From the IMG/VR virus record IMGVR_UViG_3300043673_000060: a DNA stretch of 59,088 nucleotides. One strand, 5' to 3'. The translations under genes and the position numbers were made by a program. The stretch is from an uncultured virus (IMG/VR IMGVR_UViG_3300043673_000060) (lineage: Duplodnaviria; Heunggongvirae; Uroviricota; Caudoviricetes). The notes below the pieces were generated by a model. That model saw only the letters and a program-made list of their open reading frames with translations, made no database searches and was not told the DNA's origin. Positions 1,938-59,088 of the stretch are shown piece by piece (within the stretch, counting starts at the first letter, position 1; each line of letters begins with the position of its first letter).

Positions 1938-2193
1938 GTCTCCACCGCTTGCCAGGTGGAGCTTCGTTTCACCCACCCTGCTCGGAATCCGCACGCAGGC
2001 ATGGGCCCGGTCTCCACCGCTTGCCATGTGGAGCTTCGTTTCACCCCAGCAGGACCTCGGGATCGACCACCCGAGTCACCTCGTCTCCACCGCTTGCCAT
2101 GTGGAGCTTCGTTTCACCCTCGTCCTTGCCGACGCCGTTGTACGCGATGATGATCTTGTCTCCACCGCTTGCCATGTGGAGCTTCGTTTCACC
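1938..2193 (-). CRISPR. CRISPR array 1 (no adjacent cas gene): 4 repeats of 36 nt, 3 spacers (36, 37, 39 nt)
   Basis: GTCTCCACCGCTTGCCA[G/T]GTGGAGCTTCGTTTCACC at 1938, 2010, 2083 and 2158; the leader copy lies on the right side. Confidence 0.97.
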
Positions 2194-3074: not shown

Positions 3075-3102
3075 TTCTTTCGCTCCCAGTCGGGGCTACG
3101 AC
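3075..3102. repeat. 28-bp direct repeat, left flank of the TA cassette
   Basis: TTCTTTCGCTCCCAGTCGGGGCTACGAC, identical at 3911-3938. Confidence 0.9.
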
Positions 3103-3509
3103 TTTTCCCGCTTCGGCAGCGGAAAGAGAGTCTCGACCAGCCAGAGTACGAGACGATCCGTCTGCATTCCGCTCTCGGCCATGGTCTGAAGCTCCACCAT
3201 TGCGTTCCGTGCCTTTTTCGGCGTTGTCCTCAACTGGCTACCGTTGATCGCCAGAAAAGTCATCATCGCGTCGAGCCCGGCGCGCTTGTTGCCGTCCTGG
3301 AAGACGTGTCCCTGGACGATGTAGACGGCGTATGCGGCAGCCAACTCTTCAAGCGAGTTGTAGTACGAGTTCTTGACCGCCTGCACGGCCGCCTCCACGC
3401 CCTCGTAGTTGGCGCCACGGTGGCCACCGCCTTCGTCGCCGCCCCAGCGTTCAAGCAGCTCCTTGTGCATCTGGACTACGCGTTCAGCGGTTAGCCACTT
3501 CCACCTCAT
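3096..3509 (-). CDS. doc: Doc/Fic family toxin
   Basis: HVFQDGNKR Fic/Doc motif; 137 aa; overlaps the antitoxin stop (ATGA). Confidence 0.88.
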   Translation of the reverse strand: MRWKWLTAERVVQMHKELLERWGGDEGGGHRGANYEGVEAAVQAVKNSYYNSLEELAAAYAVYIVQGHVFQDGNKRAGLDAMMTFLAINGSQLRTTPKKARNAMVELQTMAESGMQTDRLVLWLVETLFPLPKREKS

Positions 3510-10762: not shown

Positions 10763-10927
10763 TACGTGCCTGGTCTCCACCGCTTGCCAGGTGGAGCTTC
10801 GTTTCGCAGAAGCAAGTCACGCAGAAACTCCCAATCGGACAGTAGCTTTGGCTGGCCGCTCCGGTACAGCGTGTCGCTGACTTTGCGAATCACGAGGCCA
10901 GAGTCGAGAACGAACGCGTCAGGCATG
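10763..10927 (-). pseudogene. Truncated ORF with a tyrosine/dual-specificity phosphatase-like N-terminus, running into the solitary repeat
   Basis: My translation: MPDAFVLDSGLVIRKVSDTLYRSGQPKLLSDWEFLRDLLL, then repeat-encoded residues and a stop. LYRSGQP is typical of DSP/PTP N-termini. Confidence 0.45.
10773..10808 (-). CRISPR. Solitary CRISPR repeat
   Basis: GTCTCCACCGCTTGCCAGGTGGAGCTTCGTTTC matches 33 contiguous nt of the array-2 repeat; no neighbouring repeat. Confidence 0.9.
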
Positions 10928-17719: not shown

Positions 17720-17839
17720 CTACGGCCACGCCACCGTCAGCGCCAGGGCGAGCAGGACGATGCCCGCGCCGATGAGGCCCATGGCGACGCCTGCTAGCGC
17801 CAGCGTCGAACCGTCGCTCTGTCTCCACTGCTTGCCCAT
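17720..17839 (-). CDS. 39-aa single-TM microprotein whose ATG lies inside a degenerate CRISPR repeat
   Basis: My translation: MGKQWRQSDGSTLALAGVAMGLIGAGIVLLALALTVAWP*. Confidence 0.5.
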   Translation of the reverse strand: MGKQWRQSDGSTLALAGVAMGLIGAGIVLLALALTVAWP

Positions 17840-17846
17840 GTGGAGC
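17821..17846 (-). CRISPR. Degenerate solitary CRISPR repeat (hairpin plus 3' end)
   Basis: GTCTCCACTGCTTGCCCATGTGGAGC versus GTCTCCACCGCTTGCC-ATGTGGAGC: 1 mismatch and 1 insertion; the CTCCAC/GTGGAG stem is intact. Confidence 0.75.
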
Positions 17847-17850
17847 CCCG

Positions 17851-18489
17851 CTAGGTAATCGTGTCCACGTCCACGTCATCCGCAATGACCGCCAGGACGA
17901 GTTCCTCGTGCAGCGAGATGTACTTGACCTTGTCGATCGTCACGACGCGCGCGCCGCGGTCCTTGTACAGGACGCGATCCCCGACTTTGGCGTCGGGCAT
18001 AGGCCACCGCGTTCCGTCCGCGCACGGCATGCCTGGACCGACGCGCACGACGCGCCCCGCGTACATGTGACTGTCGTCCTTGGCGGTCTTCGGGATGATG
18101 AGCAGTCCGCTACGTGTACGGCGATCGTCCGGCGCCTTGTCGGGCAGAATCAGGAAGCGGTCGGACAGGATCCGGTCCGGCACGCCGCCCGCGGAGCCCG
18201 CGTCATGCACGCCGATGATGTCCTCGTCGTTGATGACCAGCTGCTCCTCGCCCTCGACGACGATGTCGACGCCGCTCCACGGCCCGAACAGGACGCGCTC
18301 ACCCACCTGCACGTCGACGCTGGAGCGCCCGCCGTGCTTGATCTTGCGCCCGTTGCCCACCGCGCGCACGTCGCCATCGAGGCGCTTTTCCTGGGCGGAG
18401 TCGGGGATGTGCAGCAGGCCGCTGTCTGTCTTGTCCTTGGGCCTGGTTCGCTTGACGACAACTCGGTTGAGGAGGGGGCGCAGGTGCAT
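17851..18489 (-). CDS. groES: Co-chaperonin with two tandem GroES (Cpn10) domains
   Basis: LRPLLNRVVVK..TDSGLLHIPDSAQEK..G.V.AVG.G..V.VGERVLF, followed by a second similar domain. Confidence 0.9.
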   Translation of the reverse strand: MHLRPLLNRVVVKRTRPKDKTDSGLLHIPDSAQEKRLDGDVRAVGNGRKIKHGGRSSVDVQVGERVLFGPWSGVDIVVEGEEQLVINDEDIIGVHDAGSAGGVPDRILSDRFLILPDKAPDDRRTRSGLLIIPKTAKDDSHMYAGRVVRVGPGMPCADGTRWPMPDAKVGDRVLYKDRGARVVTIDKVKYISLHEELVLAVIADDVDVDTIT

Positions 18490-18631: not shown

Positions 18632-18660
18632 TTGACAGGTGCCCATGGTGTCACTAGTTT
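18632..18660 (+). promoter_or_regulatory. Sigma70-type promoter of the cas12m-like gene, with a TGACA-N11-TGTCA inverted repeat
   Basis: TTGACA-N17-TAGTTT, ending 8 nt before the ATG at 18669. Confidence 0.7.
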
Positions 18661-18668
18661 GGCGATCG

Positions 18669-20582
18669 ATGAAACTCGTCTACAAGTTCGCCGCCGCCGC
18701 GCCACACGAAAATTCGGATCTCGTCGCCGCACAAATGCGGCTGGGGCACAAGTACCGCAACACGCTCACGGAGATCGAGCGCGGCAGGCGCGCCGCCGTG
18801 CGCGCCGCCGAGACGGAGATCGGCGACATGTCGGCTGCACGGAAGGCGTTGTCGGCCGCCGTGGCCGAGGTGGATCTGGCCATGGGCGCCATCGCGCGCC
18901 ACCGCGCTCACTCGCGCAAGCGCGACGAGCCGGCCGAGATGAGGCAAGCGTTCAAGACCGCCAAGGCGGCGAAGAAAGCGGCTGCTGACGCCTTCCGGGA
19001 AGTGCGAGACAAGCTACGTCTCGATCCGGGGCTCATCGACGCCAAGGATGCCATCGGCGAGCGCGCCAACGAACTGAGAGCCTCCGCGCGCGGCTACAGC
19101 GGCCTGGGCGAGCATGGCCCCCATTACGGCGCGTGGGGCACGTACTTGCTCGTCGAAAAAGCAGCCGGCGACTCCTTCAAGTCGATCGCGCTGTACGACA
19201 AGCGATCCGAGCCGGCCGATCCGAGCTTCGCGCGGTGGGTGGGCGAGTCGTCTGTCGGCGTTCAGCTGCAGGGCGGCCTCGCTGTCGCCGACGCCGTCAA
19301 CGGTGCCGACACGCAGGTCCGTATCACGCTGCCGGACGCGCGCGCATGGGACCGCCGTGGCCGCACGCACCGCGAATGCGAGCAGTTTGCGCGCCAAGCG
19401 CAGCTGTCCATCCGCATCGGGAGCGATGGACGCAGGCCCGTCTGGGCCAGTTGGCGCGTGGACATGCACCGACCGTTGCCAGACGGGGCCGTCCTCAAGG
19501 AAGTGGCCGTGCATTGCCGTAAGGAGGGGCCGTTTTCCAAGTGGTTCGCGACGTTCACGCTGGACGCGCCCGCAAAGGTGCGCGGCGGCTCGTGCGCAGG
19601 CTCCGGCACTGTCGCCGTGGACGTGGGATGGCGCGTCATGGGCGACGAGCTGCGGGTTGCTGGGTGGCAGGACGCGACCGGCGCCCGCGGGGAACTGCGT
19701 CTGTCCGCGAAAGACCTGGCCCTACTGCGCGCACCTGAAGCGCTGCGCTCGCAGCGCGACCTGCGATTCGACGTGGCTCGCGGGCGAGTCAACGCGTGGT
19801 TGCGAGCCAACAGCACGATTCTGCCCGACTGGCTCCGCCTCGCGTCCGCAAACATACACGCGTGGCGGGCAGAGTCGCGACTCGCGGGCCTGCACGGCCG
19901 GTGGCGCGGCGCCCGATTCGGTGGCGACGTCGAGATATACGACGTGCTCAGCAACTGGGCGTCGCGCGCCAGGCACGACTGGGCTGTCGAGAGTCAGGCG
20001 CGCGGACAGGCGCTGCGGCGTCGCCGCGAAAAGTACCGCGTATGGGCGGCGCAGCTGGCGACCCGGTACGACACGATTGTGATCGAGAAATTCGACAAAC
20101 GTAAGGTGGCCAAGAGGCCCGACACGGACGCGCAGTGCGCGCAGACGGCCGAGCAGATCGCCCGCGACGAGTATGCGCGTGCGCACCGCGTCCTGGCCTC
20201 CACGAGCGAGCTTTGCGGCTGCCTGGTGGATGCCGGGCGCAGTCGACAGAGCGCCGTGCTGGCCATGCCGTGCGCCGACACAACGAGAACATGTCCCACG
20301 TGCGGACTGGTCGAGTCGCGCGACGCGGCGGCGAGCGTGTCGCTCACGTGCGACTGCGGCGCCGCATGGGACCAGGACGTGGACGGGGCGCCGTCCATCC
20401 TGCTTGCACGCTGGCGCGAGCGGCCGGGCGATGCGCAAGTGCTGGCAGGCGCTCGCGAGGACGAAAACGCGAACGAAAACGGAGACAAGAAGGAAAGCAG
20501 GTGGGAGCGCGCGAGTCGAATGCGCGACGAGAAGTTGGCGAGAATGGCGACCGCTCGCGCAATGGCCAGCAATGGCGCGTAA
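18669..20582 (+). CDS. cas12m: Compact type V CRISPR effector, Cas12m (V-M / V-U1)-like, TnpB-derived, 637 aa
   Basis: RuvC-I VAVDVGWR (D318), RuvC-II IVIEKFD (E473), zinc finger CPTC..CDC, RuvC-III WDQD (D570). N-terminal QMRLGHKYRN, VGVQLQ and MHRPLP segments recall Cas12m. A CRISPR array starts 23 nt after the stop. Confidence 0.82.
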   Translation: MKLVYKFAAAAPHENSDLVAAQMRLGHKYRNTLTEIERGRRAAVRAAETEIGDMSAARKALSAAVAEVDLAMGAIARHRAHSRKRDEPAEMRQAFKTAKAAKKAAADAFREVRDKLRLDPGLIDAKDAIGERANELRASARGYSGLGEHGPHYGAWGTYLLVEKAAGDSFKSIALYDKRSEPADPSFARWVGESSVGVQLQGGLAVADAVNGADTQVRITLPDARAWDRRGRTHRECEQFARQAQLSIRIGSDGRRPVWASWRVDMHRPLPDGAVLKEVAVHCRKEGPFSKWFATFTLDAPAKVRGGSCAGSGTVAVDVGWRVMGDELRVAGWQDATGARGELRLSAKDLALLRAPEALRSQRDLRFDVARGRVNAWLRANSTILPDWLRLASANIHAWRAESRLAGLHGRWRGARFGGDVEIYDVLSNWASRARHDWAVESQARGQALRRRREKYRVWAAQLATRYDTIVIEKFDKRKVAKRPDTDAQCAQTAEQIARDEYARAHRVLASTSELCGCLVDAGRSRQSAVLAMPCADTTRTCPTCGLVESRDAAASVSLTCDCGAAWDQDVDGAPSILLARWRERPGDAQVLAGAREDENANENGDKKESRWERASRMRDEKLARMATARAMASNGA

Positions 20583-20605: not shown

Positions 20606-21201
20606 GGTGAAACGAAGCTCCACCTGGCAAGCGGTGGAGACCTCTCCCACTCGCCCTCTGCGCGCACCCCTGCGACGGGTGAAACGAAGCTCCACCTGGC
20701 AAGCGGTGGAGACGTACGGCAAGGCGCCGCGTCCTCGGCGGGCGACGGCTCGGTGAAACGAAGCTCCACCTGGCAAGCGGTGGAGACAAAGTGCCCGTGT
20801 GGTGTTACGACAACCTGGTCGCGGGTGAAACGAAGCTCCACCTGGCAAGCGGTGGAGACATGGCGTCGATGACCGCCGCTTCGGGGTCGGGAAAGGGTGA
20901 AACGAAGCTCCACCTGGCAAGCGGTGGAGACAAGATCGGCCGGACCAACGACCCGTGGCGACGGGCGGGGGCCTAGGTGAAACGAAGCTCCACCTGGCAA
21001 GCGGTGGAGACGGAGCCGCCGCCTCGAAGTGGATCGGCTCAGTCATGGGTGAAACGAAGCTCCACCCGGCAAGCGGTGGAGACCGTGACGAACGAGCGCG
21101 CCCGTGCCCGGTGCGGCGCCGGTGAAACGAAGCTCCACCTGGCAAGCGGTGGAGACGAGGCGACGGGTGAAACGAAGCTCCACCTGGCAAGCGGTGGAGA
21201 C
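20606..21201 (+). CRISPR. CRISPR array 2 (effector-adjacent): 9 repeats, 8 spacers (36, 38, 36, 36, 44, 36, 37, 9 nt)
   Basis: GGTGAAACGAAGCTCCACCTGGCAAGCGGTGGAGAC at 20606, 20678, 20752, 20824, 20896, 20976, 21048 (one variant base), 21121 and 21166; stem CTCCACC/GGTGGAG. Confidence 0.98.
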
Positions 21202-21286
21202 CGAAAAGCCCCCGAGAACGGAGCGGCGCCCCGCCACTTGACGAATGACCCAAACGTCACCATACTGATTGGTGAGGATGCCACCC

Positions 21287-21766
21287 ATGAAGCTCTGTCT
21301 TCTCTCCGTTTTTCTCCTGGTCGGTTGCGGTGGCGCCCCGTTCTCGGAGGGCCTTGTCGACCCCGTCGAGGCCTCGGCCGAGGCCGGCGACGAGGTTGGC
21401 GACCCGCAACCGGACGCGGGACGGGACAGCGCCCCGGAAGCCGGGGGAGGGGATTCTGCGAGCTGGGTGGCAGAAGCGGGGGAGGCGGGGTACGAGGGCG
21501 GGACCGTGGACAGTGGGGTCGACACGGGGGCGGTGGAGGCGGGGGTGGTATGTCCGGGGTATTTGCCGTGCAACGTGAATCGGAACTGGCCGGGCGCATT
21601 TTGCCTCGTTCGCACGGGCGGCGGCGACGACGACTTCACGGCGCCTGCCGCGTGCAACAGCTGCGGCACGTACACGTGCGCCTGCATCCTCGCGAACTCA
21701 ACATTCGCAGTCGGGTGCGCCTGTTCGCTTAGTAGCGACGGTGCCGCTATGGTCGTCTGCCCGTAA
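21287..21766 (+). CDS. Cys-rich lipoprotein
   Basis: MKLCLLSVFLLVGC lipobox, acidic linker, Cys-rich C-terminus; promoter TTGACG-N17-CATACT upstream. Confidence 0.75.
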   Translation: MKLCLLSVFLLVGCGGAPFSEGLVDPVEASAEAGDEVGDPQPDAGRDSAPEAGGGDSASWVAEAGEAGYEGGTVDSGVDTGAVEAGVVCPGYLPCNVNRNWPGAFCLVRTGGGDDDFTAPAACNSCGTYTCACILANSTFAVGCACSLSSDGAAMVVCP

Positions 21767-32730: not shown

Positions 32731-34290
32731 TCAGTCCTGCTGGGTATCCTCGGCGCAGCCCCAGGCGCGCGGCACGCTGGCGAACCGCCGACGGGGGAGA
32801 CCGGCAAACGTGCCAGGAGCTGGCTGTCCGCCGCCACGGCTGAAGACCTGGCTGGCGTGAGGGATGCTGATCGGGGCGCCGGTGACCGTACGTCCGGGCG
32901 GAACCGGGGACGGGAGCGGAACCGGGTAGGCCTGGTTCGGCAGCGGTGGCGCCGTGAACGCCGGTGGCGGCAGCGCGGGCGGGGGCGGGGGCGGGATCGG
33001 GATCGGGATCGGAGCCGGGGGCTGCGGCTGGACGATGGGAGCCGGCGGAGTGGGCGACGTCGAAGACGACGTCGCAGGTGCGCCGGTCTGCGGTAGGGCC
33101 GTGGAGCCAGAGCTGCCCCTGAAGCGGCAGCATGCGCCGACGCCCGTGGTGCAGTTCACGCAGCCGCACCCGGCCGCGCCGAGACCACTGCGGTCCTGCG
33201 AGACGTCGATGCCGGAGTACGGCAGGGACGGGTATTTCGAGACGTCGCCACCCGCGTACTCGGTCCTCTTCATCATCGAGCGCAGCTCGGCGTCGTACAG
33301 ACGCTGAGCGTAGCTCGTGTTGCGGAACAGGTAGGCGAACAGCTCGGTGGCAGCCTTGCCCAGGATTCGCACACCGGCACCGAAGCCGAAGAACTGCAGC
33401 GAACTGCGGCCGACGGGCGACTCGATGAAGGCGGCGATGCCAAACGGGATGCCGGCGATGCCGATGCCGGCTGCCCAGCGCTTCCAGTCCATCGGCGCGA
33501 GCACCGCGGTGCCGTTGTACAGGCCCATGTAGTCGCCCGTGGCGGGCGGCATGTCCACGTACGCCCCGGCCGTGCCGGTCAGCGCGTGCGTGGCCAGGAC
33601 GCGATCGAGCGCGTCGGCAGCGACGAACCCGAGCATGCCCGTGAAGGCCCCGACGCCCAGCTCGGCCGGCGTCAGCGGATTCTCCATCGCGTAGCCACGG
33701 CCGCTGCGACGTGTGATGCTGCGGCCACGGCCGCTGCGACGAGCGCCCGAACGACGCGAGGAGCCGCTCTTGCGGCTCTTGCGGCTCTTGCGACGCTTGC
33801 GGGGCGTCTCGGCGCTCATGTGGCGGCGAACGCGGACGCGCTTGCTGCCGCGCTTGGCGTAGTGGCCGCGCACGGAGTGCTTGCGCGAGGACCGGCTGCT
33901 GCGACGCTTGCGCGGAGCCTCGCTGGCGCCCGCACGGCGACGGCGGCGCGCGGCGACGGCGCTCTTCTTCATCGAGAGCTTGCGGCGACCGCCCGAGCGG
34001 CGCTTGCGCGGAGTCTCAGCGGCCTCGCTGGCACGACGAGCCCGGCGCTTCGGCTTCTCGTCGCTCATGTGGGACTTGACCCGGTAGCCGCGCACCCGGT
34101 GAGACTTCACCGTGTGCGACTTGACCTTGTGGCGCCGACGGGCCTTGCGCGGGGCGGCCGACTTGCGGCTGGCGCGACGCGCGGCCTTGCGGACCGTCTT
34201 GGTCTTCCTGCTGCCGCCCTTCGCCTTGCGGGCGCGAGCACTGGCACGCGTTGCTTTTCGCTGGGCTTTCTTTTGCGCCTTCGTGGGCAT
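32731..34290 (-). CDS. Highly basic (K/R/S-rich, histone-H1/protamine-like) protein with membrane segments and a Pro-rich tail; putative genome-condensing core protein
   Basis: About 200 N-terminal residues dominated by R/K/S, then hydrophobic helices and poly-Pro; AAGGA RBS before the ATG at 34290. Confidence 0.7.
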   Translation of the reverse strand: MPTKAQKKAQRKATRASARARKAKGGSRKTKTVRKAARRASRKSAAPRKARRRHKVKSHTVKSHRVRGYRVKSHMSDEKPKRRARRASEAAETPRKRRSGGRRKLSMKKSAVAARRRRRAGASEAPRKRRSSRSSRKHSVRGHYAKRGSKRVRVRRHMSAETPRKRRKSRKSRKSGSSRRSGARRSGRGRSITRRSGRGYAMENPLTPAELGVGAFTGMLGFVAADALDRVLATHALTGTAGAYVDMPPATGDYMGLYNGTAVLAPMDWKRWAAGIGIAGIPFGIAAFIESPVGRSSLQFFGFGAGVRILGKAATELFAYLFRNTSYAQRLYDAELRSMMKRTEYAGGDVSKYPSLPYSGIDVSQDRSGLGAAGCGCVNCTTGVGACCRFRGSSGSTALPQTGAPATSSSTSPTPPAPIVQPQPPAPIPIPIPPPPPPALPPPAFTAPPLPNQAYPVPLPSPVPPGRTVTGAPISIPHASQVFSRGGGQPAPGTFAGLPRRRFASVPRAWGCAEDTQQD

Positions 34291-34315: not shown

Positions 34316-34343
34316 GTCTCCCCCGCTTGCCTGGTGGAGCTTC
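34316..34343 (-). CRISPR. Degenerate solitary CRISPR repeat in the 5' UTR of the basic-protein/capsid operon
   Basis: GTCTCCCCCGCTTGCCTGGTGGAGCTTC matches the repeat at 26/28 nt and ends 25 nt before the ATG at 34290. Confidence 0.8.
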
Positions 34344-40171: not shown

Positions 40172-40810
40172 CTAGCTCCCCGACGCAGGGTCGCTGATCA
40201 CGGTGGTGTTGGTGCCGGCCGGAACGGTCGCTGCACCCGAGATGTCGGTGCTGCCGGTGTAGCCGGCGCCCCACCACGTGGTCGAGTCGGGCGCGGTAAC
40301 GCCGTTCCAACCAGGCGGGTTGGCGAACGTGTACGCCGCGTTCCAGTTGCTGGACATCGGCACCGGCGGCGAGACGCTTGCCAGAGCGTTCTTCACGGCG
40401 GCGTACGTCTTTTGTCCGGGCCAACCATCAGCCGTGAGCCCCGCTGCTGACTGCAGGGACTTGTAGTACGGGACGTTCGCTGCGGTGTACCCGGCAGCAT
40501 CCTGAGCCTTGTTCGCGTTGACTGCGGCAGCCTGCAGGGCGGTGTACGTCGTCGTCGGCCCCGCGGGTCCCGCCGGAGTCGTCGGCCCCGCGGGTCCCGC
40601 CGGAGTCGTCGGCCCCGCGGGTCCCGCCGGAATGGCCGGCGTCGCGTTCGCGCTCTTGTTCTTGAGTAGAAGCACCGCTGCGATCACGCCTGCGGCGACG
40701 ACTCCGGTGCCCGCGATCCATGCAGCGCGGTGACCATGTCGCGCGGGTAGATGCACGATGCGCCCCGTGGTACGTGCGCCGCTCGAACGACCGCTGCGTC
40801 GTGTTGCCAT
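40172..40810 (-). CDS. N-terminally anchored protein with a peptidoglycan-binding (PG_binding_1-like) motif
   Basis: LQSAAGLTADGWPGQKT motif; 3 x 27-bp tandem repeat at 40551-40631 encoding PAGPAGPTT. Confidence 0.65.
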   Translation of the reverse strand: MATRRSGRSSGARTTGRIVHLPARHGHRAAWIAGTGVVAAGVIAAVLLLKNKSANATPAIPAGPAGPTTPAGPAGPTTPAGPAGPTTTYTALQAAAVNANKAQDAAGYTAANVPYYKSLQSAAGLTADGWPGQKTYAAVKNALASVSPPVPMSSNWNAAYTFANPPGWNGVTAPDSTTWWGAGYTGSTDISGAATVPAGTNTTVISDPASGS

Positions 40811-49221: not shown

Positions 49222-51483
49222 TCAGTTTCGGCGCCTTTTTGCCGCTGTCGATCTTTCGTTGCCCAGAATCGAGTACCAACTGTCTGTGGTAAGTACGACG
49301 TGGTCGATCAGTGTGCACTCACCCTCGAACGGCTTGAGAGCCTCCTGAATGTCCTTCGTGAGTTGCCTGTCCGCGGCGCTGGGCTTGCTCGAATTGTTCG
49401 ACGGGTGTGCGTGAGCGATCACGGCACCTTCGCACCCGGTCAGCAAGATGGGCCGCATCACGTCCTGGATGCCCACGCTCACCTTGGAGCGCTGCCCTCG
49501 GGCGACCTCGAATACGCCACGCAGGTGGCCATGCAGGTCCAAGCAGACGACGACGAATACCTCCTGGTCGTTTTTCCCAAGCTCACCGGCAAGCAGGTCG
49601 AACACCTGCTGCGGCGTCTCGATGGGACCAATAGCTTTCGCCTTCTCCATGCGCTTCTCGTAATCCGCGGTGTCGCGTTCGACGCGCAGCCATGGCACGC
49701 ACGTGCCGTCGCTGCAGGGTGCCTTGTCAACCTTCTGCTCTATGGTCACCGTTTCGCCAGTCGGATGCCTTTCGCACGCCTCGTGCGCCGCGCACGGAGC
49801 GCATTCCTCTGCTGCTGGCGGCTCCGCGCTGGCCGCCGTCTTCGCCCCCTGGTCGACGAGAATCTTCCTCGCATCCGGCCCCAACCGGCTCACCGTCTTC
49901 TTGTCGCCCGAGACGTGCCACTTGCCACGCCGGTGGTACAGCTCGCGCTTCTCGTAGCCTTTTTTCCCCACGGGACGACGCTTGTAGATGTCGTACTTCG
50001 ATCCGCGCTCCGCGATGTACCGGAAGCCCTCGGTGTATGCGTGCTGTTCGGCCGCGTTGACGGTCTTGAAATCCTCCTCCGCCGTCACCACCGTCGCCGT
50101 CTCGCTCTTGGTCACAGTCTCCGTTGTGCTCACGGCCGCAGCGACGACCACGGGGTCTTCATGCAGGACGGGGACGCGTTCGGAGGCGCTCGAATCTCGA
50201 TGACCATCTCCCCCCGGAGATTCCGCCGCCCTCTGCCCCTCCCGCGGCTGGTGCCTTCTAGCCGCGCCCATCGCCGCGCCCATGTTGCCGTGCACGCCTA
50301 GGTCTTCCTCGTGGCCGTCGTGCACGTAGTACGCATGGACGTTGTCGTCGCCCTCGGGCACGAGCTTGTACTCGGCATTGCCGAAGGTCTTGGCGTGCCA
50401 CGCGCCGTCGCGCTGCTTCCAGTTGAGCGCGCCGGAGGGACCGCCGTCTTCGCGGGCGGCGGGAGGGGCGGAGCGGGGCCACGGGGCGCGCTCTGGCTCC
50501 TTCTTCGACGACTCGGCCGCTTCCGACGCCTTCGGCCGCGACTCGCGCGACTCGTTGACGCCCTTCCGTTCGAGCGGCTCGCCGTGGACCTTGCCGTCCT
50601 GCACGTACAGGTCGAACGTCCCGTACTTCTCCGCCGCCTCGGTCAGGCGGTCGCCAACAGCGCCGAGACCGCGATCCCAGAAGCCCGCGCCGTGCTCGTT
50701 GCGCGTGAGCCAGAAGTCGAACCCGGCGCTGTGCGCGTTGTAGTGGCGGCCATCCACGAACACGTCGGCGTTGTACGCCTTGTCCAGGTCCTTCTCGTTG
50801 TCGCGCTGGAACTTCGCGCAATCGCGGCGCATCTGCTCCAGCGTGTCGTCGGCGATATGGTCGACGCCGTACTTGTCGTCGAGCGGATCGCCACCGTTGT
50901 CGCGACTGTTGTCCGTCGATGACCAGAGCGAAGCTACCGCGTAGCCGGACGTGAAGCTGTCGAGGCCTCTACGCTTGTAGTCCTCGCGCGACATCCGCCG
51001 TGGCTTCCGGCGTGAGAGCCTGCGCTCGCCGCGCTCTGCGGCCCCGCCGTCCGGCCAGATGCGTTCGCCGGTGGCGTTGATGAACGTGTCGGCGCTGTAC
51101 GTGGCTGTGTACGGCCCCTGACCTGCCTCCCGCACGTCTCTGCCAGCCCGCTCGCTGTTGCCGGCCCCGCGCTGGATCATCAGCTCGCTGTACTCCCGGT
51201 GCGCCATGCGCTGCGCCAGGGCTTCGCGGGTGGCGGGGGAGAAATGGGCGCCCGGGAACTCGCGGGAGTAGTCCTTCGCGGCGCGATCGATCCAGTACAA
51301 CCAGAGCTTGGGCGCCTTCGCCGGATCGTACGTGCCCTTGTCCAGCCTGCGCTCGATGTTCTGCAGGATCGCCTGCTTCTGCGGGTACAACTCGGCGGTG
51401 TTGTTCGCAAAAAGGTCGAGTTCTTCGAGTTCGACTTCGTTGACGGGCTCGCGGTGCCTGGTCTCTTCGGCCATGTACGACAT
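49222..51483 (-). CDS. Polyvalent multidomain protein with C-terminal RadC-like JAB domain
   Basis: QEVFVVVCLD and HAHPS....PSAADRQLT..LIDHVV match RadC/JAB; several unassigned N-terminal domains. Confidence 0.8.
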   Translation of the reverse strand: MSYMAEETRHREPVNEVELEELDLFANNTAELYPQKQAILQNIERRLDKGTYDPAKAPKLWLYWIDRAAKDYSREFPGAHFSPATREALAQRMAHREYSELMIQRGAGNSERAGRDVREAGQGPYTATYSADTFINATGERIWPDGGAAERGERRLSRRKPRRMSREDYKRRGLDSFTSGYAVASLWSSTDNSRDNGGDPLDDKYGVDHIADDTLEQMRRDCAKFQRDNEKDLDKAYNADVFVDGRHYNAHSAGFDFWLTRNEHGAGFWDRGLGAVGDRLTEAAEKYGTFDLYVQDGKVHGEPLERKGVNESRESRPKASEAAESSKKEPERAPWPRSAPPAAREDGGPSGALNWKQRDGAWHAKTFGNAEYKLVPEGDDNVHAYYVHDGHEEDLGVHGNMGAAMGAARRHQPREGQRAAESPGGDGHRDSSASERVPVLHEDPVVVAAAVSTTETVTKSETATVVTAEEDFKTVNAAEQHAYTEGFRYIAERGSKYDIYKRRPVGKKGYEKRELYHRRGKWHVSGDKKTVSRLGPDARKILVDQGAKTAASAEPPAAEECAPCAAHEACERHPTGETVTIEQKVDKAPCSDGTCVPWLRVERDTADYEKRMEKAKAIGPIETPQQVFDLLAGELGKNDQEVFVVVCLDLHGHLRGVFEVARGQRSKVSVGIQDVMRPILLTGCEGAVIAHAHPSNNSSKPSAADRQLTKDIQEALKPFEGECTLIDHVVLTTDSWYSILGNERSTAAKRRRN

Positions 51484-52471: not shown

Positions 52472-52852
52472 CTACTTGATGACCGTGAACTCGATGTCGT
52501 CCTCGCCGGGCCCGCTCGCGCCGCTGTAGTTGATGACGATCTCTTCGCCTTCCGAAATAGGCCGCACCGCGTAGAACCGGATCGTCTGCGAGCGTCTGCG
52601 CGTCGTCCATGACGCGTTCGGCGTGTACGAATGGTTGTACAGCGAGCCGGCTCCCAGAGCGATGGCGCACTTGCCGTAGAACTCGTACGCCCACTCCTGG
52701 TACGGATAGTCCTCGCGGCTCGCCCACGGTCGGTTGCCGACGAGCAGCACGTGGCAGATTTCGATCGTCTCGCCACGATCGAAGTCGCGACGTGCGTAGA
52801 CCGCGCGGCCCTTGCGGTTGCGACGGACGGCGATCTGGTCGACGGCGCTCAC
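52472..52852 (-). CDS. SET-domain lysine methyltransferase
   Basis: KGRAVYARRD..GE, SLYNHSYTPN and GEEIVINY motifs. Confidence 0.88.
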   Translation of the reverse strand: MSAVDQIAVRRNRKGRAVYARRDFDRGETIEICHVLLVGNRPWASREDYPYQEWAYEFYGKCAIALGAGSLYNHSYTPNASWTTRRRSQTIRFYAVRPISEGEEIVINYSGASGPGEDDIEFTVIK

Positions 52853-55382: not shown

Positions 55383-56249
55383 TCACAGTGCCTCCTCCGG
55401 CTCTTCCTTCGCTCCCATTGCCCAACGCAGCGCGGCCACGGCGACCTTCGCGCTCGCCTTCGCGAGGCATTCCAGTTCGCCAATCTTCTCCTCGATGACC
55501 TTCGCGCTGCGTCGCGCCGGCTTGTCGCCAAGGATCTCGCGCGCCTTGGCGGCGTTCGAGCGACGCTTCTTGCCTTCCGCCTTCGGCGCCTCCACGGCCA
55601 GTTGGTCGACGAGCCTCTTCTGCTCGCTGGGCTCCATGCCCTTCATCTTGTAGCCGTCGCTGGCGGGCAGCTCGCCGCTGTCGATCTTGCGCTGGATGTC
55701 CCTGGGCAGATCGAGCAGCGACGTCGTGTTCTTCACCGTCGCCGCGCCCACGCCGAACATCTTCCCCACGTGCGCCTCGTCGCGGCCGAGGTCGAGCATG
55801 CGCTGCATCTTGCGCGCGCGATTCATGGGCGAATCGGCCGCGCGCTGCTCGTTTTCCGACGTCAGGATGTCGAACAGCTCGGCCGCTTCCCCGCGCTTGA
55901 CCGTCGCCGGAATCCACCGCGGCTCGGCGCCCTTCGCCCGCAAGCGCCTGTTGGCCTCGCGGTTGTTGATGATGCGCCTGCGGCCGGCGACGCACTCGAT
56001 GTCGCCCGTTTCCGGGTTGCGGCGCACCGTGATCGGCGTGTGCACACCGATGGCCATGATGTTGAGGACCATGGACTCCACGGGCTTCTCGAACACGCGC
56101 TCGTCGAACAGCGCGGAGCCGCGGTCCTCGACCAGTACGATCTTGTCCGGGTCGAGCAGGAAGCTGTCCTTCTTGCCCTCGTGCTGGCCCCCGAGCGCAT
56201 CCTTGACGCGCTTGCCGCTCGCGGCCTTCTTTTTCGTCGCTGCGCTCAC
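55383..56249 (-). CDS. ParB/Srx-like protein
   Basis: GVHTPITVR..VAGRRR..ENEQR plus an HTH-like region. Confidence 0.75.
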   Translation of the reverse strand: MSAATKKKAASGKRVKDALGGQHEGKKDSFLLDPDKIVLVEDRGSALFDERVFEKPVESMVLNIMAIGVHTPITVRRNPETGDIECVAGRRRIINNREANRRLRAKGAEPRWIPATVKRGEAAELFDILTSENEQRAADSPMNRARKMQRMLDLGRDEAHVGKMFGVGAATVKNTTSLLDLPRDIQRKIDSGELPASDGYKMKGMEPSEQKRLVDQLAVEAPKAEGKKRRSNAAKAREILGDKPARRSAKVIEEKIGELECLAKASAKVAVAALRWAMGAKEEPEEAL

Positions 56250-56765
56250 ACCCGTCCGCCCTTCAGGTTCCGCTCGTCCTCGCGCTTGTGGCGTACCTGC
56301 GCGCACCAGCCCGCGATCCGGTTCTTCGGCACATCGAAGTGTGCCGCGACATCGTCGAGCGACATGCCGAGTTCGTAACGCATGCGAAATGCCTCCTCCA
56401 TGTGCGGCGACGCGACGCCGATCCCTTTCGGGGCCGACGTACGGCGATAATCGCTCGCCGTTTTCGTCGTCTCCGTGGTCGGCGCACAGGTCTCCTTGGG
56501 CCTGTACGGCTCGTGACCGTCCGCGTGGCGCACCAGACGGGCCCCACGAGAGCCCTTTGCGAGCGCAGCCACGGTGAACGAGGCGTTTCGGCCGCTCACG
56601 AGCACGCCGTACGCGCGAAGCTCACCGTTTTCGTCGCGTTCGACGCGCTGCACGGTGAACTCGACGCGGATTCTGTTGATGTTGAGCACCGACCACTGCT
56701 GGTCGACGGACACGCTTTGCACGATCCCACCTCCGAACGCTGCGCTGACAGCGGTTTCCGTAGCC

Positions 56766-58199
56766 CTACTTCGCGTCGACGACCCTCTTCACCTGGCTGA
56801 GCGCAACCGGCCCGTCGATCTTGTCGACGTCGACCACGGCGATCTCACCGTGCATGCGCGCCGGGCCCTTCGTGAAGGTTTCGACGGGCCCGCCAGCGGT
56901 CTGCACGACGACGGGGAAGCCCGCCATGCTCGGCCACTTAGAGCACAGCTCGGCCTGCTCCTGCAGACGCACGGCGCGCTCGTGGTCGGGAATGACCGGC
57001 GTGGTCGACGACGGGACGACGGGCGTCTCGCCAGGCTTGAGGCCGCCGATGGGGCCCGTTGGGACGGTGGCGCCAGGCATTTCCATCTGCACTGGCGTAC
57101 CCGGCTTGACGCCGGTCGGCCGCGCGGTCGCAACGGGCTCGTTTTGCGAGCTGGCTGGCTGATTGGCCGGATGGGTGGGCGTGCCCGCGTCCGCTGGGGA
57201 CGCGGAGCTTGCGTTGGCACCGCGTGCGCGGGTGGCAAGGCGCTGTCCGCGGGTCTTGGGAGCGTCGGCGGAGGCGTCGGACTGCGCCTGGGTGGCGACC
57301 GGCTCGGCGCTCTCGCCATTTTTCGCCGCCATGATCTCGGCCCAGGACTGCTCGCCCTCACGGATGGCCGCGTACAGGCCGCGCAGATCCGTGAGCTGCG
57401 CCGGTGAGCACTGGGCGAGATCGTGCCCCAGGTACGCCTTCAGGTCGCTCGGCATCACGCTCATCGCGGCGAATCCATCGGCGAGAGCTTTGCGCGCTGC
57501 GTCCGGATCCTGCGCGTCTTGCCGCTTGACGGTGTCGATGATCTTCTGCTCGCACTCTTCGATCGTGTCCGCGCTGAGCAAGCGCAGGCCTTCGGTGCGA
57601 AGGGTCTTCGACACGAGGGCGTTTTCCTTCTGTAGTAGTTCGTCGTCCGTAGCTTCGACCAGGTACACCATGTCGCCGTAGCTGTTGGTGCGCGCACGCA
57701 GCGCCAGCTGCCCCTGCCCGAGCTTCTTGCGCTCCACAGTCTTGCCGATGACGACGTCCTTGCCGAACGCTGCGTTCGTTTCGAGGTCGATCACGGTGAT
57801 GGCCACGATCCGTTTCTCGGCATCGTCGTACACGGCCCTCGTCGAGACCATGATGTTTCCCATGTGCCGGATGGCGGCTTCGGCGAAACGTACGGACAGA
57901 CCCTCGATGCGACCGATCGTGCCGGTGATGCGTCCCGGCTTGTTGCCGCGCTGCACGCTGAAGAACGCGCGCGACGCGAACGACGTGCGCGAGCACTCCT
58001 TGAGCAGCCGGATACGGACGTTGTCGTCGTCGCGCGGATGCTGCATGGCCATGATGAAGCGCGCCTGCACCTCTGCCTGCGCGCGCGCCGCCTCCGCCGA
58101 GGTCGATGTCTCGTGCCGCTTCTCCAGCGAGGCATCGCCGAAGCCCTGCCGCGCGATGCTCGTACCGTTGCCGTTCGTCGTCGTCATATCCTGCGACAT
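56766..58199 (-). CDS. Putative single-strand annealing/recombination protein (SSAP-like)
   Basis: AEVQARFIMA..PRD..EGLSVRFAE..MGN..DLETN pattern seen in phage early recombination regions; low-complexity C-terminus. Confidence 0.55.
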   Translation of the reverse strand: MSQDMTTTNGNGTSIARQGFGDASLEKRHETSTSAEAARAQAEVQARFIMAMQHPRDDDNVRIRLLKECSRTSFASRAFFSVQRGNKPGRITGTIGRIEGLSVRFAEAAIRHMGNIMVSTRAVYDDAEKRIVAITVIDLETNAAFGKDVVIGKTVERKKLGQGQLALRARTNSYGDMVYLVEATDDELLQKENALVSKTLRTEGLRLLSADTIEECEQKIIDTVKRQDAQDPDAARKALADGFAAMSVMPSDLKAYLGHDLAQCSPAQLTDLRGLYAAIREGEQSWAEIMAAKNGESAEPVATQAQSDASADAPKTRGQRLATRARGANASSASPADAGTPTHPANQPASSQNEPVATARPTGVKPGTPVQMEMPGATVPTGPIGGLKPGETPVVPSSTTPVIPDHERAVRLQEQAELCSKWPSMAGFPVVVQTAGGPVETFTKGPARMHGEIAVVDVDKIDGPVALSQVKRVVDAK

Positions 58200-58261
58200 G
58201 CGTCACCCCTTCACCATCGTTGTGCTGAGACACAAGCTCGCGCTTGCAGGCTCAGAGCCGG

Positions 58262-58297
58262 GTCTCCACCGCTTGCCATGTGGAGCTTCGTTTCGCC
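58262..58297 (-). CRISPR. Solitary repeat with its own promoter, in the 5' leader of the SSAP-like operon
   Basis: 35/36 match to the repeat; 100 nt from array 3; 62 nt upstream of the ATG at 58199. Confidence 0.9.
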
Positions 58298-58299
58298 CC

Positions 58300-58328
58300 A
58301 AACTAACAACCAGTCGCGCGCCCGTCAA
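58300..58328 (-). promoter_or_regulatory. Sigma70-type promoter firing into the solitary repeat
   Basis: Minus strand TTGACG-N17-TAGTTT, ending 2 nt before the repeat; same -10 as the cas promoter. Confidence 0.7.
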
Positions 58329-58397
58329 GCGCTCAGTTCGCGCCCGCCGCCATCGTCCGTGCGGGCCGCGGATGGCATGCGGGGTCGCGCATGCATC

Positions 58398-59001
58398 GTC
58401 TCCACCGCTTGCCATGTGGAGCTTTCGTTTCACCTTGTCGACGCAGCGCCACGCGCAGGTCTCCACCGCTTGCCATGTGGAGCTTCGTTTCACCAAGCGG
58501 TGGAGACAAGCAGACGGCGCTCCTCCTGGTTGTCTCCACCGCTTGCCATGTGGAGCTTCGTTTCACCGCGCGCGCGTTGGGACGCCCACCGCGCACCTCC
58601 ACGTCTCCACCGCTTGCCATGTGGAGCTTCGTTTCACCCTGCCAGCGCAGATCGCTCGTGGTCTTGTGATCGGGTCTCCACCGCTTGCCATGTGGAGCTT
58701 CGTTTCACCCTACACGACCACCTCGTGACGGCAACGCGCCCGCGCGTCGTCTCCACCGCTTGCCATGTGGAGCTTCGTTTCACCATGCCGCGCCGAGCGG
58801 GTTCGCAGCCTTCCTGAAGTGTCTCCACCGCTTGCCATGTGGAGCTTCGTTTCACCGCCAGACCGACGAGGACGAGCGGGCATCGCGAGTGAGTCTCCAC
58901 CGCTTGCCATGTGGAGCTTCGTTTCACCGGGTCTCCATCGCCGACGCGCAAGAGGCGCAGCCCGGGTCTCCACCGCTTGCCATGTGGAGCTTCGTTTCAC
59001 C
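58398..59001 (-). CRISPR. CRISPR array 3: 9 repeats, 8 spacers (24-39 nt)
   Basis: Repeats at 58398 (37-nt variant), 58459, 58532, 58603, 58674, 58749, 58821, 58893 and 58966. Confidence 0.98.
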
Positions 59002-59088
59002 AGGTCCCGCAGGACCCCAATCATTACGCGCCATTGCTGGCCATTGCGCGAGCGGTCGCCATTCTCGCCAACTTCTCGTCGCGCATTC
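59002..59088 (-). repeat. Leader / effector 3'-end copy, cut by the window edge
   Basis: Identical to 2194-2280. Confidence 0.9.

Follow-up and report, generated by a model that had tools for sequence, protein, structure and literature searches.

A solitary type V-M repeat behind a predicted promoter, a candidate Cas12m-binding leader on a phage operon mRNA

The solitary repeat unit, its promoter and its operon

The uncultured tailed phage IMGVR_UViG_3300043673_000060 of the IMG/VR collection was analyzed over a stretch of 59,088 bp (the window; 67% G+C) that belongs to a 121-kb metagenome contig (P0001) and contains a gene for Cas12m, the CRISPR effector of type V-M, together with three CRISPR arrays, all sharing one 36-nt repeat. 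An additional, isolated copy of this repeat, the solitary unit that concerns us here, is found at the 5' end of a minus-strand operon. Reading along that strand, a -35 hexamer (TTGACG, 58323-58328) is followed after 17 nt by a -10 hexamer (TAGTTT, 58300-58305), then by GG and by the repeat itself, GGCGAAACGAAGCTCCACATGGCAAGCGGTGGAGAC (58262-58297). The repeat is identical to the consensus at 35 of its 36 positions (nhmmer E 7.4e-13), the only change being a T to C at repeat position -34, and 62 nt (58261-58200) separate it from the ATG (58199-58197) that starts the open reading frame (ORF) 56766-58199. A preliminary description had listed here TTGACG-N17-TAGTTT, a single 35/36 repeat, 62 nt and a start codon; every one of these elements is present and the repeat is a real off-array copy, with the nearest other repeat 100 nt away. 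The latter belongs to array 3 (58398-59001, minus strand), whose ninth and last repeat contains a 1-nt insertion and whose transcription is directed toward the solitary repeat. In the whole window a search with the consensus (up to 3 mismatches) gave 23 repeat matches, against none in 100 shuffles.

The 62 nt behind the repeat begin with what would be a pseudo-guide, CCGGCTCTGAGCCTGCAAGC (58242-58261, minus strand), the 20 nt right after the crRNA (CRISPR RNA) handle, which are at the same time the start of the 5' untranslated region (UTR). A leader hairpin of the form CTGAG..CAAGC-GCGA-GCTTG..CTCAG, with a GNRA-type loop, appears in minimum-energy folds at 58225-58255, and a Shine-Dalgarno-like AAGGGG, assigned by its sequence, is located at 58206-58211, 49-55 nt past the handle (both on the minus strand). 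No terminator-like site was found between the repeat and the ATG, and Rfam and a tRNA scan returned 0 matches and 0 genes, respectively. Within the handle a CUCCAC/GUGGAG stem (positions -24 to -19 with -8 to -3), followed by 2 nt and the guide, pairs in the minimum-energy fold, and this 3'-proximal helix plus 2 nt plus guide is comparable in layout to the Cas12m2 scaffold as described in the available text of PMC10442227. The same fold pairs ACCC at the junction of handle and guide with GGGU of the ribosome site, a 4-bp helix to which we give little weight. The pseudo-guide is also nearly palindromic, and the opposite strand (58247-58266, plus) matches it at 12 of 15 positions after a TTG, with mismatches at guide positions 2 and 8, which is probably meaningless. 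Binding of Cas12m to the DNA of the solitary unit itself is unlikely because the position of the protospacer-adjacent motif (PAM) is filled by the repeat end GAC, as happens at every array spacer.

The effector gene, cas12m (18669-20582, plus strand), codes for a protein of 637 aa that phmmer matched among PDB sequences to 23vw, a "CRISPR-associated DNA-binding protein Cas12m" (E 1.8e-50), and to Cas12m2 (8hhl, E 3e-20). Aligning 19 relatives showed E473 and D568/D570 to be invariant, with D318 almost so, and by our own reading these residues would be the D-E-D positions of the RuvC domain. According to the accessible passages of PMC11013384, Cas12m uses a single crRNA of 50-60 nt, the precursor is cut inside the repeat and PAM-flanked DNA is bound uncleaved, while those of PMC10442227 report order at positions -29 to -1 of the Cas12m2 crRNA, disorder at -36 to -30 and an optimal duplex length of 17 bp. 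The type V-M systems described in the portions seen of these two papers and of a preprint (10.64898/2026.09.14.751636) resemble the one found here in the effector family, in the array placed directly past the gene, in the repeat (36 nt, a 3'-proximal stem and a ..GAC end) and with regard to adaptation genes, none of which was seen in the window. Off-array repeats, present here, are not described for type V-M in the same portions. The preliminary description did not include the point that the effector is Cas12m, and since this family does not cleave, a regulatory reading of the solitary unit becomes more natural.

The promoter placed at the repeat by the preliminary description is credible as a prediction. 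Exact matches to TTGACR-N17-TAGTTT are found only twice in the window, at the solitary repeat and ahead of cas12m (TTGACA-N17-TAGTTT, 18632-18660, plus strand), and never in 100 shuffles. Likewise, TAGTTTGG is present only at the solitary unit and at the cas12m promoter (18655-18662), 2 matches where 0.27 are expected. We considered that one promoter region could be a duplicate of the other and rejected it; only the hexamers and the next GG align, and the two regions are unalignable beyond them, so that what they have in common is the class of promoter rather than an origin by duplication. A looser version of the pattern gave 8 matches (2.5 +/- 1.6 in 200 shuffles), seven of them intergenic in our own ORF map, although one of these seven counts only if the start of gene 32731 is moved to 34290, a shift backed by the G+C content at third codon positions (0.68 upstream, 0.86 downstream). 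The ATG of cas12m (18669) is located just 9 nt past its -10 element, and therefore the cas12m mRNA is probably leaderless or nearly so. As the same geometry would apply to the solitary unit, its transcription is predicted to start at 58293-58291, i.e. at repeat positions -32 to -30, and the primary transcript would begin about where the mature Cas12m crRNA scaffold begins. The predicted start inside the repeat is in line with the earlier proposal that the operon transcript begins with a crRNA handle.

The first gene of the operon (56766-58199, minus strand) codes for a 477-aa protein that belongs to phrog_3657, of unassigned function, and is possibly a relative of Rad52/RecT-type annealing proteins. 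The preliminary description had called it similar to a single-strand annealing protein (SSAP); the gene is where it was said to be and fold hints, which we take as leads only, point faintly toward the SSAP label. No Pfam family and no PDB match by profile was found for the protein, and Foldseek gave nothing at E <=0.001, with RAD52 and the Sak annealing protein appearing at E 0.26-0.38. In a wide structure search the best Z (6.5) was to unrelated folds, with RAD52 at 5.0 and the C-terminal domain of Red-beta at 5.1, and an Atlas search returned a Rad52-family cluster (0.77) and a RecT cluster (0.76). Downstream follow genes for a small helix-turn-helix-like protein, a ParB-like protein and a DNA methyltransferase, neighbours that do not show this to be a recombination operon, as had been claimed; the weak fold hints are what speaks for it.

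Off-array repeats in the window and in other Cas12m phages

A search with the repeat profile found three more off-array copies in the window, all on the minus strand and 1-38 kb from any array. The second full-length copy (10773-10808, E 1.1e-12) differs from the repeat variant of array 2 at positions -36 and -34 and lies at the end of a cluster of minus-strand genes. The third (34316-34343, E 1.1e-5) retains only the scaffold part, with 3 changes in -28 to -1, lies behind TTGACG-N18-GAGAAT and ends 25 nt (AAGGA included) before the ATG at 34290. The gene that follows it (32731-34290, minus strand) has a Lys/Arg-rich N-terminus (MPTKAQKKAQRKATRASARARKAKGG...) and no family match. In the fourth (17821-17846, E 1e-4) the stem is intact with a 1-nt loop insertion; its start is 4 nt past the stop of a GroES-like gene, and from its end 38 nt remain to an ATG of a small hydrophobic ORF. 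The changes are unevenly distributed, since the two full-length off-array copies are altered at 3 of 14 positions in -36 to -30 and at 0 of 58 in -29 to -1 (Fisher p 0.006), and the two partial copies retain just about -28 or -25 to -1. What survives in these copies thus seems to be the part that Cas12m would hold, and the solitary repeat appears, from these comparisons, to belong to a group of related off-array handles built into the mRNAs of this phage.

Genes for Cas12m followed by an array were found in 29 IMG/VR loci and in the GenBank phage KX853510, to which genomes added two more loci. The Cas12m of KX853510 was deposited as "similar to transposase". The preprint 10.64898/2026.09.14.751636, in the text available, terms a myxophage case the first phage-encoded Cas12m; contrary to this "first", KX853510 and the 29 IMG/VR loci likewise encode Cas12m beside arrays. 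Within 10 kb of cas12m on either side, isolated repeat copies are present in 3 of the 21 loci with a usable array, some of the 21 being near-duplicates of one another. We also made a census of ten whole records plus the window, in which a copy was called off-array at nhmmer E <=0.01, except for one record (W01) that was examined by pattern matching and where all 18 matches fell inside the array. By this count the window has four off-array copies, G001 seven, and G007, G008 and G009 one each; G003 also has one, situated between two arrays. With the profile of all 36 nt, G001 showed an eighth copy (58834, E 0.0039).

G001 is a complete genome of 109.7 kb with terminal repeats. Ahead of its cas12m a TATAAT is separated by 4 nt from a degenerate repeat; a spacer of 27 nt leads to another repeat, which stands 86 nt from the GTG of the gene, and this fusion of promoter and repeat is similar to the one at 58262-58328. 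Two further copies in this genome end 26 and 29 nt ahead of start codons. One copy (83292-83327) comes directly after a sequence like a tRNA 3' end (GGTTCGATTCCCAC), 26 nt before an ATG. In G008 the copy is about 12 nt (CGGAGGTGTGAT, including GGAGG) before the ATG of what is apparently the N-terminus of cas12m, as judged by eye against the consensus of the Cas12m alignment, and in G009 the copy is followed by GGAGGATGATCC and then by GTG.

A possible leader function and the competing explanations

The solitary unit is an intact off-array copy of the type V-M repeat of the phage, fused to a rare promoter class that would also drive cas12m. The explanation we favour, tentatively and at somewhat less than an even chance, is that it is a Cas12m-binding mRNA leader acting in cis. 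Transcription would begin 4-6 nt within the repeat, in the part that is disordered in the Cas12m2 crRNA, and each operon mRNA would start with a complete Cas12m crRNA scaffold in which its own 5' UTR replaces the spacer. Cas12m, co-produced from the sister promoter, would bind this 5' handle in cis, so that what becomes of the operon mRNA, be it protection of its 5' end, a refolded leader or its translation, would depend on how much Cas12m there is, and part of the Cas12m pool would be occupied. Both the binding and an effect on expression at the solitary unit are what we infer from this arrangement. Where a handle ends 12-29 nt ahead of a start codon, the simplest mechanism would be that the ribosome site is occluded; at the solitary unit protection of the 5' end or refolding of the leader would be more likely because the Shine-Dalgarno is 49-55 nt off. 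A broader proposal, which we regard as doubtful, is that Cas12m has a second role in phages, regulating genes of the phage itself by binding RNA, through handles in mRNA leaders, sometimes that of cas12m itself, with binding setting the stability or translation of the mRNA and with promoter-fused operon transcripts born with the handle.

Several observations weigh against a leader function. The promoter and the transcription start of the solitary unit are predictions; the promoter agrees with the E. coli consensus at only 8 of 12 positions, and a generic scanner called no promoter-like site between 56500 and 59088. Shuffled sequence folds just as well as the whole leader (z 0.27), for which direct occlusion of the distant ribosome site is not obvious, unlike the cases of 34316, G008 and G009. 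In the stem of the 34316 copy itself an A.G mismatch stands uncompensated. A leader role is inapplicable to the 10773 copy, at an operon end, or to the G001 copies 28506, 38331 and 41269, which are at operon ends or within small ORFs. That all four copies in the window are in the sense of the genes carries little information, since most genes share that strand. In 5 of the 11 records of the census (G002, G004, G005, G010 and W01) there are no off-array copies at the threshold used. Finally, among 59 viral loci with relatives of the 477-aa protein (up to 56% identity) none has Cas12m or the repeat; the handle is therefore a lineage-specific addition, a result also compatible with a recent scar.

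Such a scar would be a neutral remnant of array 3, or of a collapsed array, standing by chance beside the operon promoter, which we think quite unlikely. The unit is on the same strand as array 3 and only 100 nt from it, the arrays are eroded or rearranged (spacers of 9, 24 and 44 nt, an inverted repeat fragment, duplicated leaders), and the absence of repeats both around the relatives of the downstream gene and off the arrays in 5 of 11 Cas12m phage records would fit. Against this, the copy is nearly perfect while the last repeat of array 3 (58398-58434) has an insertion (E 7.4e-13 vs 4.3e-12), its changes avoid the scaffold, and the -10 element is exactly 2 nt upstream, to be compared with the TATAAT 4 nt before the repeat in G001. 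The preliminary description had named as its refuting case that relatives show a decayed terminal repeat of array 3; the situation is not simply so, as a gap of 99 nt, in which the profile search finds no repeat remnant, contrasts with spacers of 9-44 nt, the unit is better kept than the last repeat, and three off-array copies are far from the arrays. The position next to array 3 could alternatively make the unit a processing or insulator site, at which Cas12m cuts read-through transcripts of the array and so defines the 5' end of the operon mRNA and the 3' end of the last array unit. Array 3 and the operon share a strand with no T-tract terminator between them, Cas12m processes within repeats (available text of PMC11013384) and other copies also lie between genes (17821; G001 83327), but an operon promoter directly at the repeat makes processing needless for its transcripts, and the hairpin GCATGCG..CGCATGC after the last array repeat may halt read-through; we consider this explanation decidedly improbable.

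The solitary unit could also act in trans. If the repeat plus the next 17-20 nt were a stand-alone, promoter-driven crRNA, it would silence DNA of the host, of a rival element or of the contig (the remaining 62 kb), the read-through into the operon being incidental or economical. We judge this unlikely. Cas12m needs just the upstream repeat for its handle (according to the passages seen of PMC11013384), the predicted start is at a mature-like 5' end, the folding energies of the pseudo-guides fall within the range of the array spacers, and the copies at operon ends (10773; G001 28506) suit guides better than leaders. Targets are another matter. The searches covered the window, IMG/VR and phage and plasmid collections, with the host genome and the other 62 kb of the contig outside them. 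The preliminary description had suggested a check for PAM-adjacent partial matches to the 20 nt after the repeat, and the window gave no target: 7 non-self matches of at least 14/18 compare with 8.2 expected, array spacers and pseudo-guides gave chance levels with blastn-short, and a seed scan near promoters had as its sole match the near-palindrome of the pseudo-guide itself (58247, plus). No exact match to the 20-mer of the pseudo-guide was found in IMG/VR, nor a target for that of the second guide, and blastn of 58199-59001 gave no match in the phage collection and 4 hits in the plasmid collection, the best at E 0.06. None of the 8 off-array guides of G001 has an internal match above 15/18. 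The remaining possibility in trans, to which we assign a low probability, similar to that of a processing site, is a decoy: abundant handle RNA would soak up the Cas12m of rival phages or that of the phage itself, damping silencing. Type V-A anti-CRISPR RNAs (Racrs) act against Cas12a, but the solitary units described in the consulted text of the same paper (PMC10651486) are "not associated with cas genes" and here cas12m and three arrays are in the same element. Moreover, there is no terminator that would make a small RNA, and a handle plus any sequence would be a loaded complex rather than an inactive one.

The cis-acting leader has partial precedents. The preliminary description held that solitary repeats and crRNA-like regulators are known mainly for class 1 systems, a statement that is outdated, since V-A anti-CRISPR RNAs and crRNA-like regulators have been published (PMC10651486, 10.1101/2023.03.03.530964 and 10.1101/2024.10.29.618823, for all of which we rely on partial text). 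The closest are the viral solitary repeats, or Racrs (Camara-Wilpert et al. 2023, PMC10651486), which are also single phage repeats directly past a predicted promoter and of which V-A examples have been proven. From the same partial text, Racrs mimic host repeats, are unlinked to cas genes and are small non-coding RNAs, whereas the solitary unit matches the arrays of the phage's own Cas12m and would form the start of an operon mRNA that codes for proteins; the Racr types given there do not include V-M. Off-array repeats that turn a Cas effector into a transcription regulator have been described as crRNA-like RNAs (crlRNA), CreR and CreA (10.1101/2023.03.03.530964, 10.1101/2023.03.10.532045) and as Cracr (10.1101/2024.10.29.618823), and according to the sections of these sources available to us crRNA-like elements sit upstream of cas12a in many V-A loci, as the G001 and G008 units do upstream of cas12m. 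The DNA that those RNAs recognize is PAM-flanked and matches them in part, most often in the promoter of a cas or toxin gene, and for the solitary unit no such target was found in the sequences searched; moreover, regulation would here fall on an unrelated phage operon that has the handle in its mRNA. Viral solitary repeats and crRNA-like RNAs are thus already known, and a Cas12m handle leading an operon mRNA would be a variant on them. No published description of off-array Cas12m repeats in mRNA leaders was found in titles, abstracts and passages, supplements being left unopened.

RNA hairpins serve as control sites elsewhere too: the phage proteins MS2 coat protein and T4 RegA repress translation at an operator hairpin, and Csy4/Cas6 sites have been engineered into 5' UTRs. 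These cases share with the off-array handles a protein-specific hairpin at or before the translation start, the best fits being 34316, G008 and G009, while in the solitary unit the ribosome site is some 50 nt away. To our knowledge nothing shows Cas12m acting on RNA past crRNA binding and processing. Cas12m is a natural "dead" Cas12 that binds DNA and blocks transcription with no cutting, and if the leader function is real, a CRISPR effector would be working on RNA, as an operator-binding protein that can be programmed, instead of serving immunity or the silencing of DNA. CRISPR parts would then form a gene-control circuit inside a virus, beyond their use as weapons between genetic elements, and the fusion of promoter and handle would be a compact natural coupling of mRNA and Cas protein that needs no processing step, relevant to builders of Cas12m circuits.

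CRISPR arrays and other features of the window

Besides array 3, the window contains array 1 (1938-2193, minus strand, 4 repeats) and array 2 (20606-21201, plus strand, 9 repeats). In the transcribed sense the repeat reads GGTGAAACGAAGCTCCAC[A/C]TGGCAAGCGGTGGAGAC, a sense assigned because arrays 1 and 2 have about 190 conserved nt in common on that side, of which array 3 shares at least 87. At array 2 the conserved flank is the 3' end of cas12m (18669-20582), which doubles as array leader. The leader of array 1 (2195-2385) is a copy of these ~190 nt from the cas12m 3' end, and the final 123 nt of the window (58966-59088) reproduce 2158-2280, the first repeat plus leader, with 100% identity, so arrays 1 and 3 share the leader end. 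From these leader copies it follows that array modules were duplicated along with a gene fragment. Array spacers range from 9 to 44 nt, mostly 35-39 nt, the irregular ones being of 9 nt (21157-21165), 24 nt (58435-58458) and 44 nt (20932-20975). The 9-nt spacer (GAGGCGACG) equals the first 9 nt of the array 1 trailer, after its last repeat, and in a spacer of array 3 (58495-58531) the final 13 nt are the reverse complement of the repeat 3' end; this spacer may derive from the array junction of a related element or be an inversion scar. The arrays in the window have clearly been rearranged. Directly past the last repeat of array 2 there is also a TTGACG-N17-CATACT motif (21238-21290), and the ORF behind it begins MKLCLLSVFLLVGCGG, which resembles a lipoprotein signal.

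The repeat pattern had 0 matches in IMG/VR and a single one in JGI metagenome contigs, a chance match within a coding repeat. Close relatives of the phage, sought in IMG/VR by a single protein, were not found, the closest protein relatives being 58-70% identical and located on contigs of up to 150 kb (P0002-P0008, P0122-P0128). In one DNA run the contigs break at repeats; a 17.7-kb contig takes in the unique flank as far as 58288, and there is no coverage over 58300-58600.

Other genes recognized in the window code for a Doc-like toxin (3096-3509), a two-domain GroES-like protein (17851-18489), a large RadC-domain fusion protein (49222-51483), a SET-domain protein (52472-52852) and a ParB-like protein (55383-56306). 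With genes for ParB and Doc, the phage may have the lifestyle of a plasmid-like prophage. Furthermore, there are two pairs of direct repeats, each 97% identical (38765-38946/39389-39570, 182 nt, and 7122-7276/8036-8190, 155 nt), and a 27-nt tandem repeat at 40551-40646.

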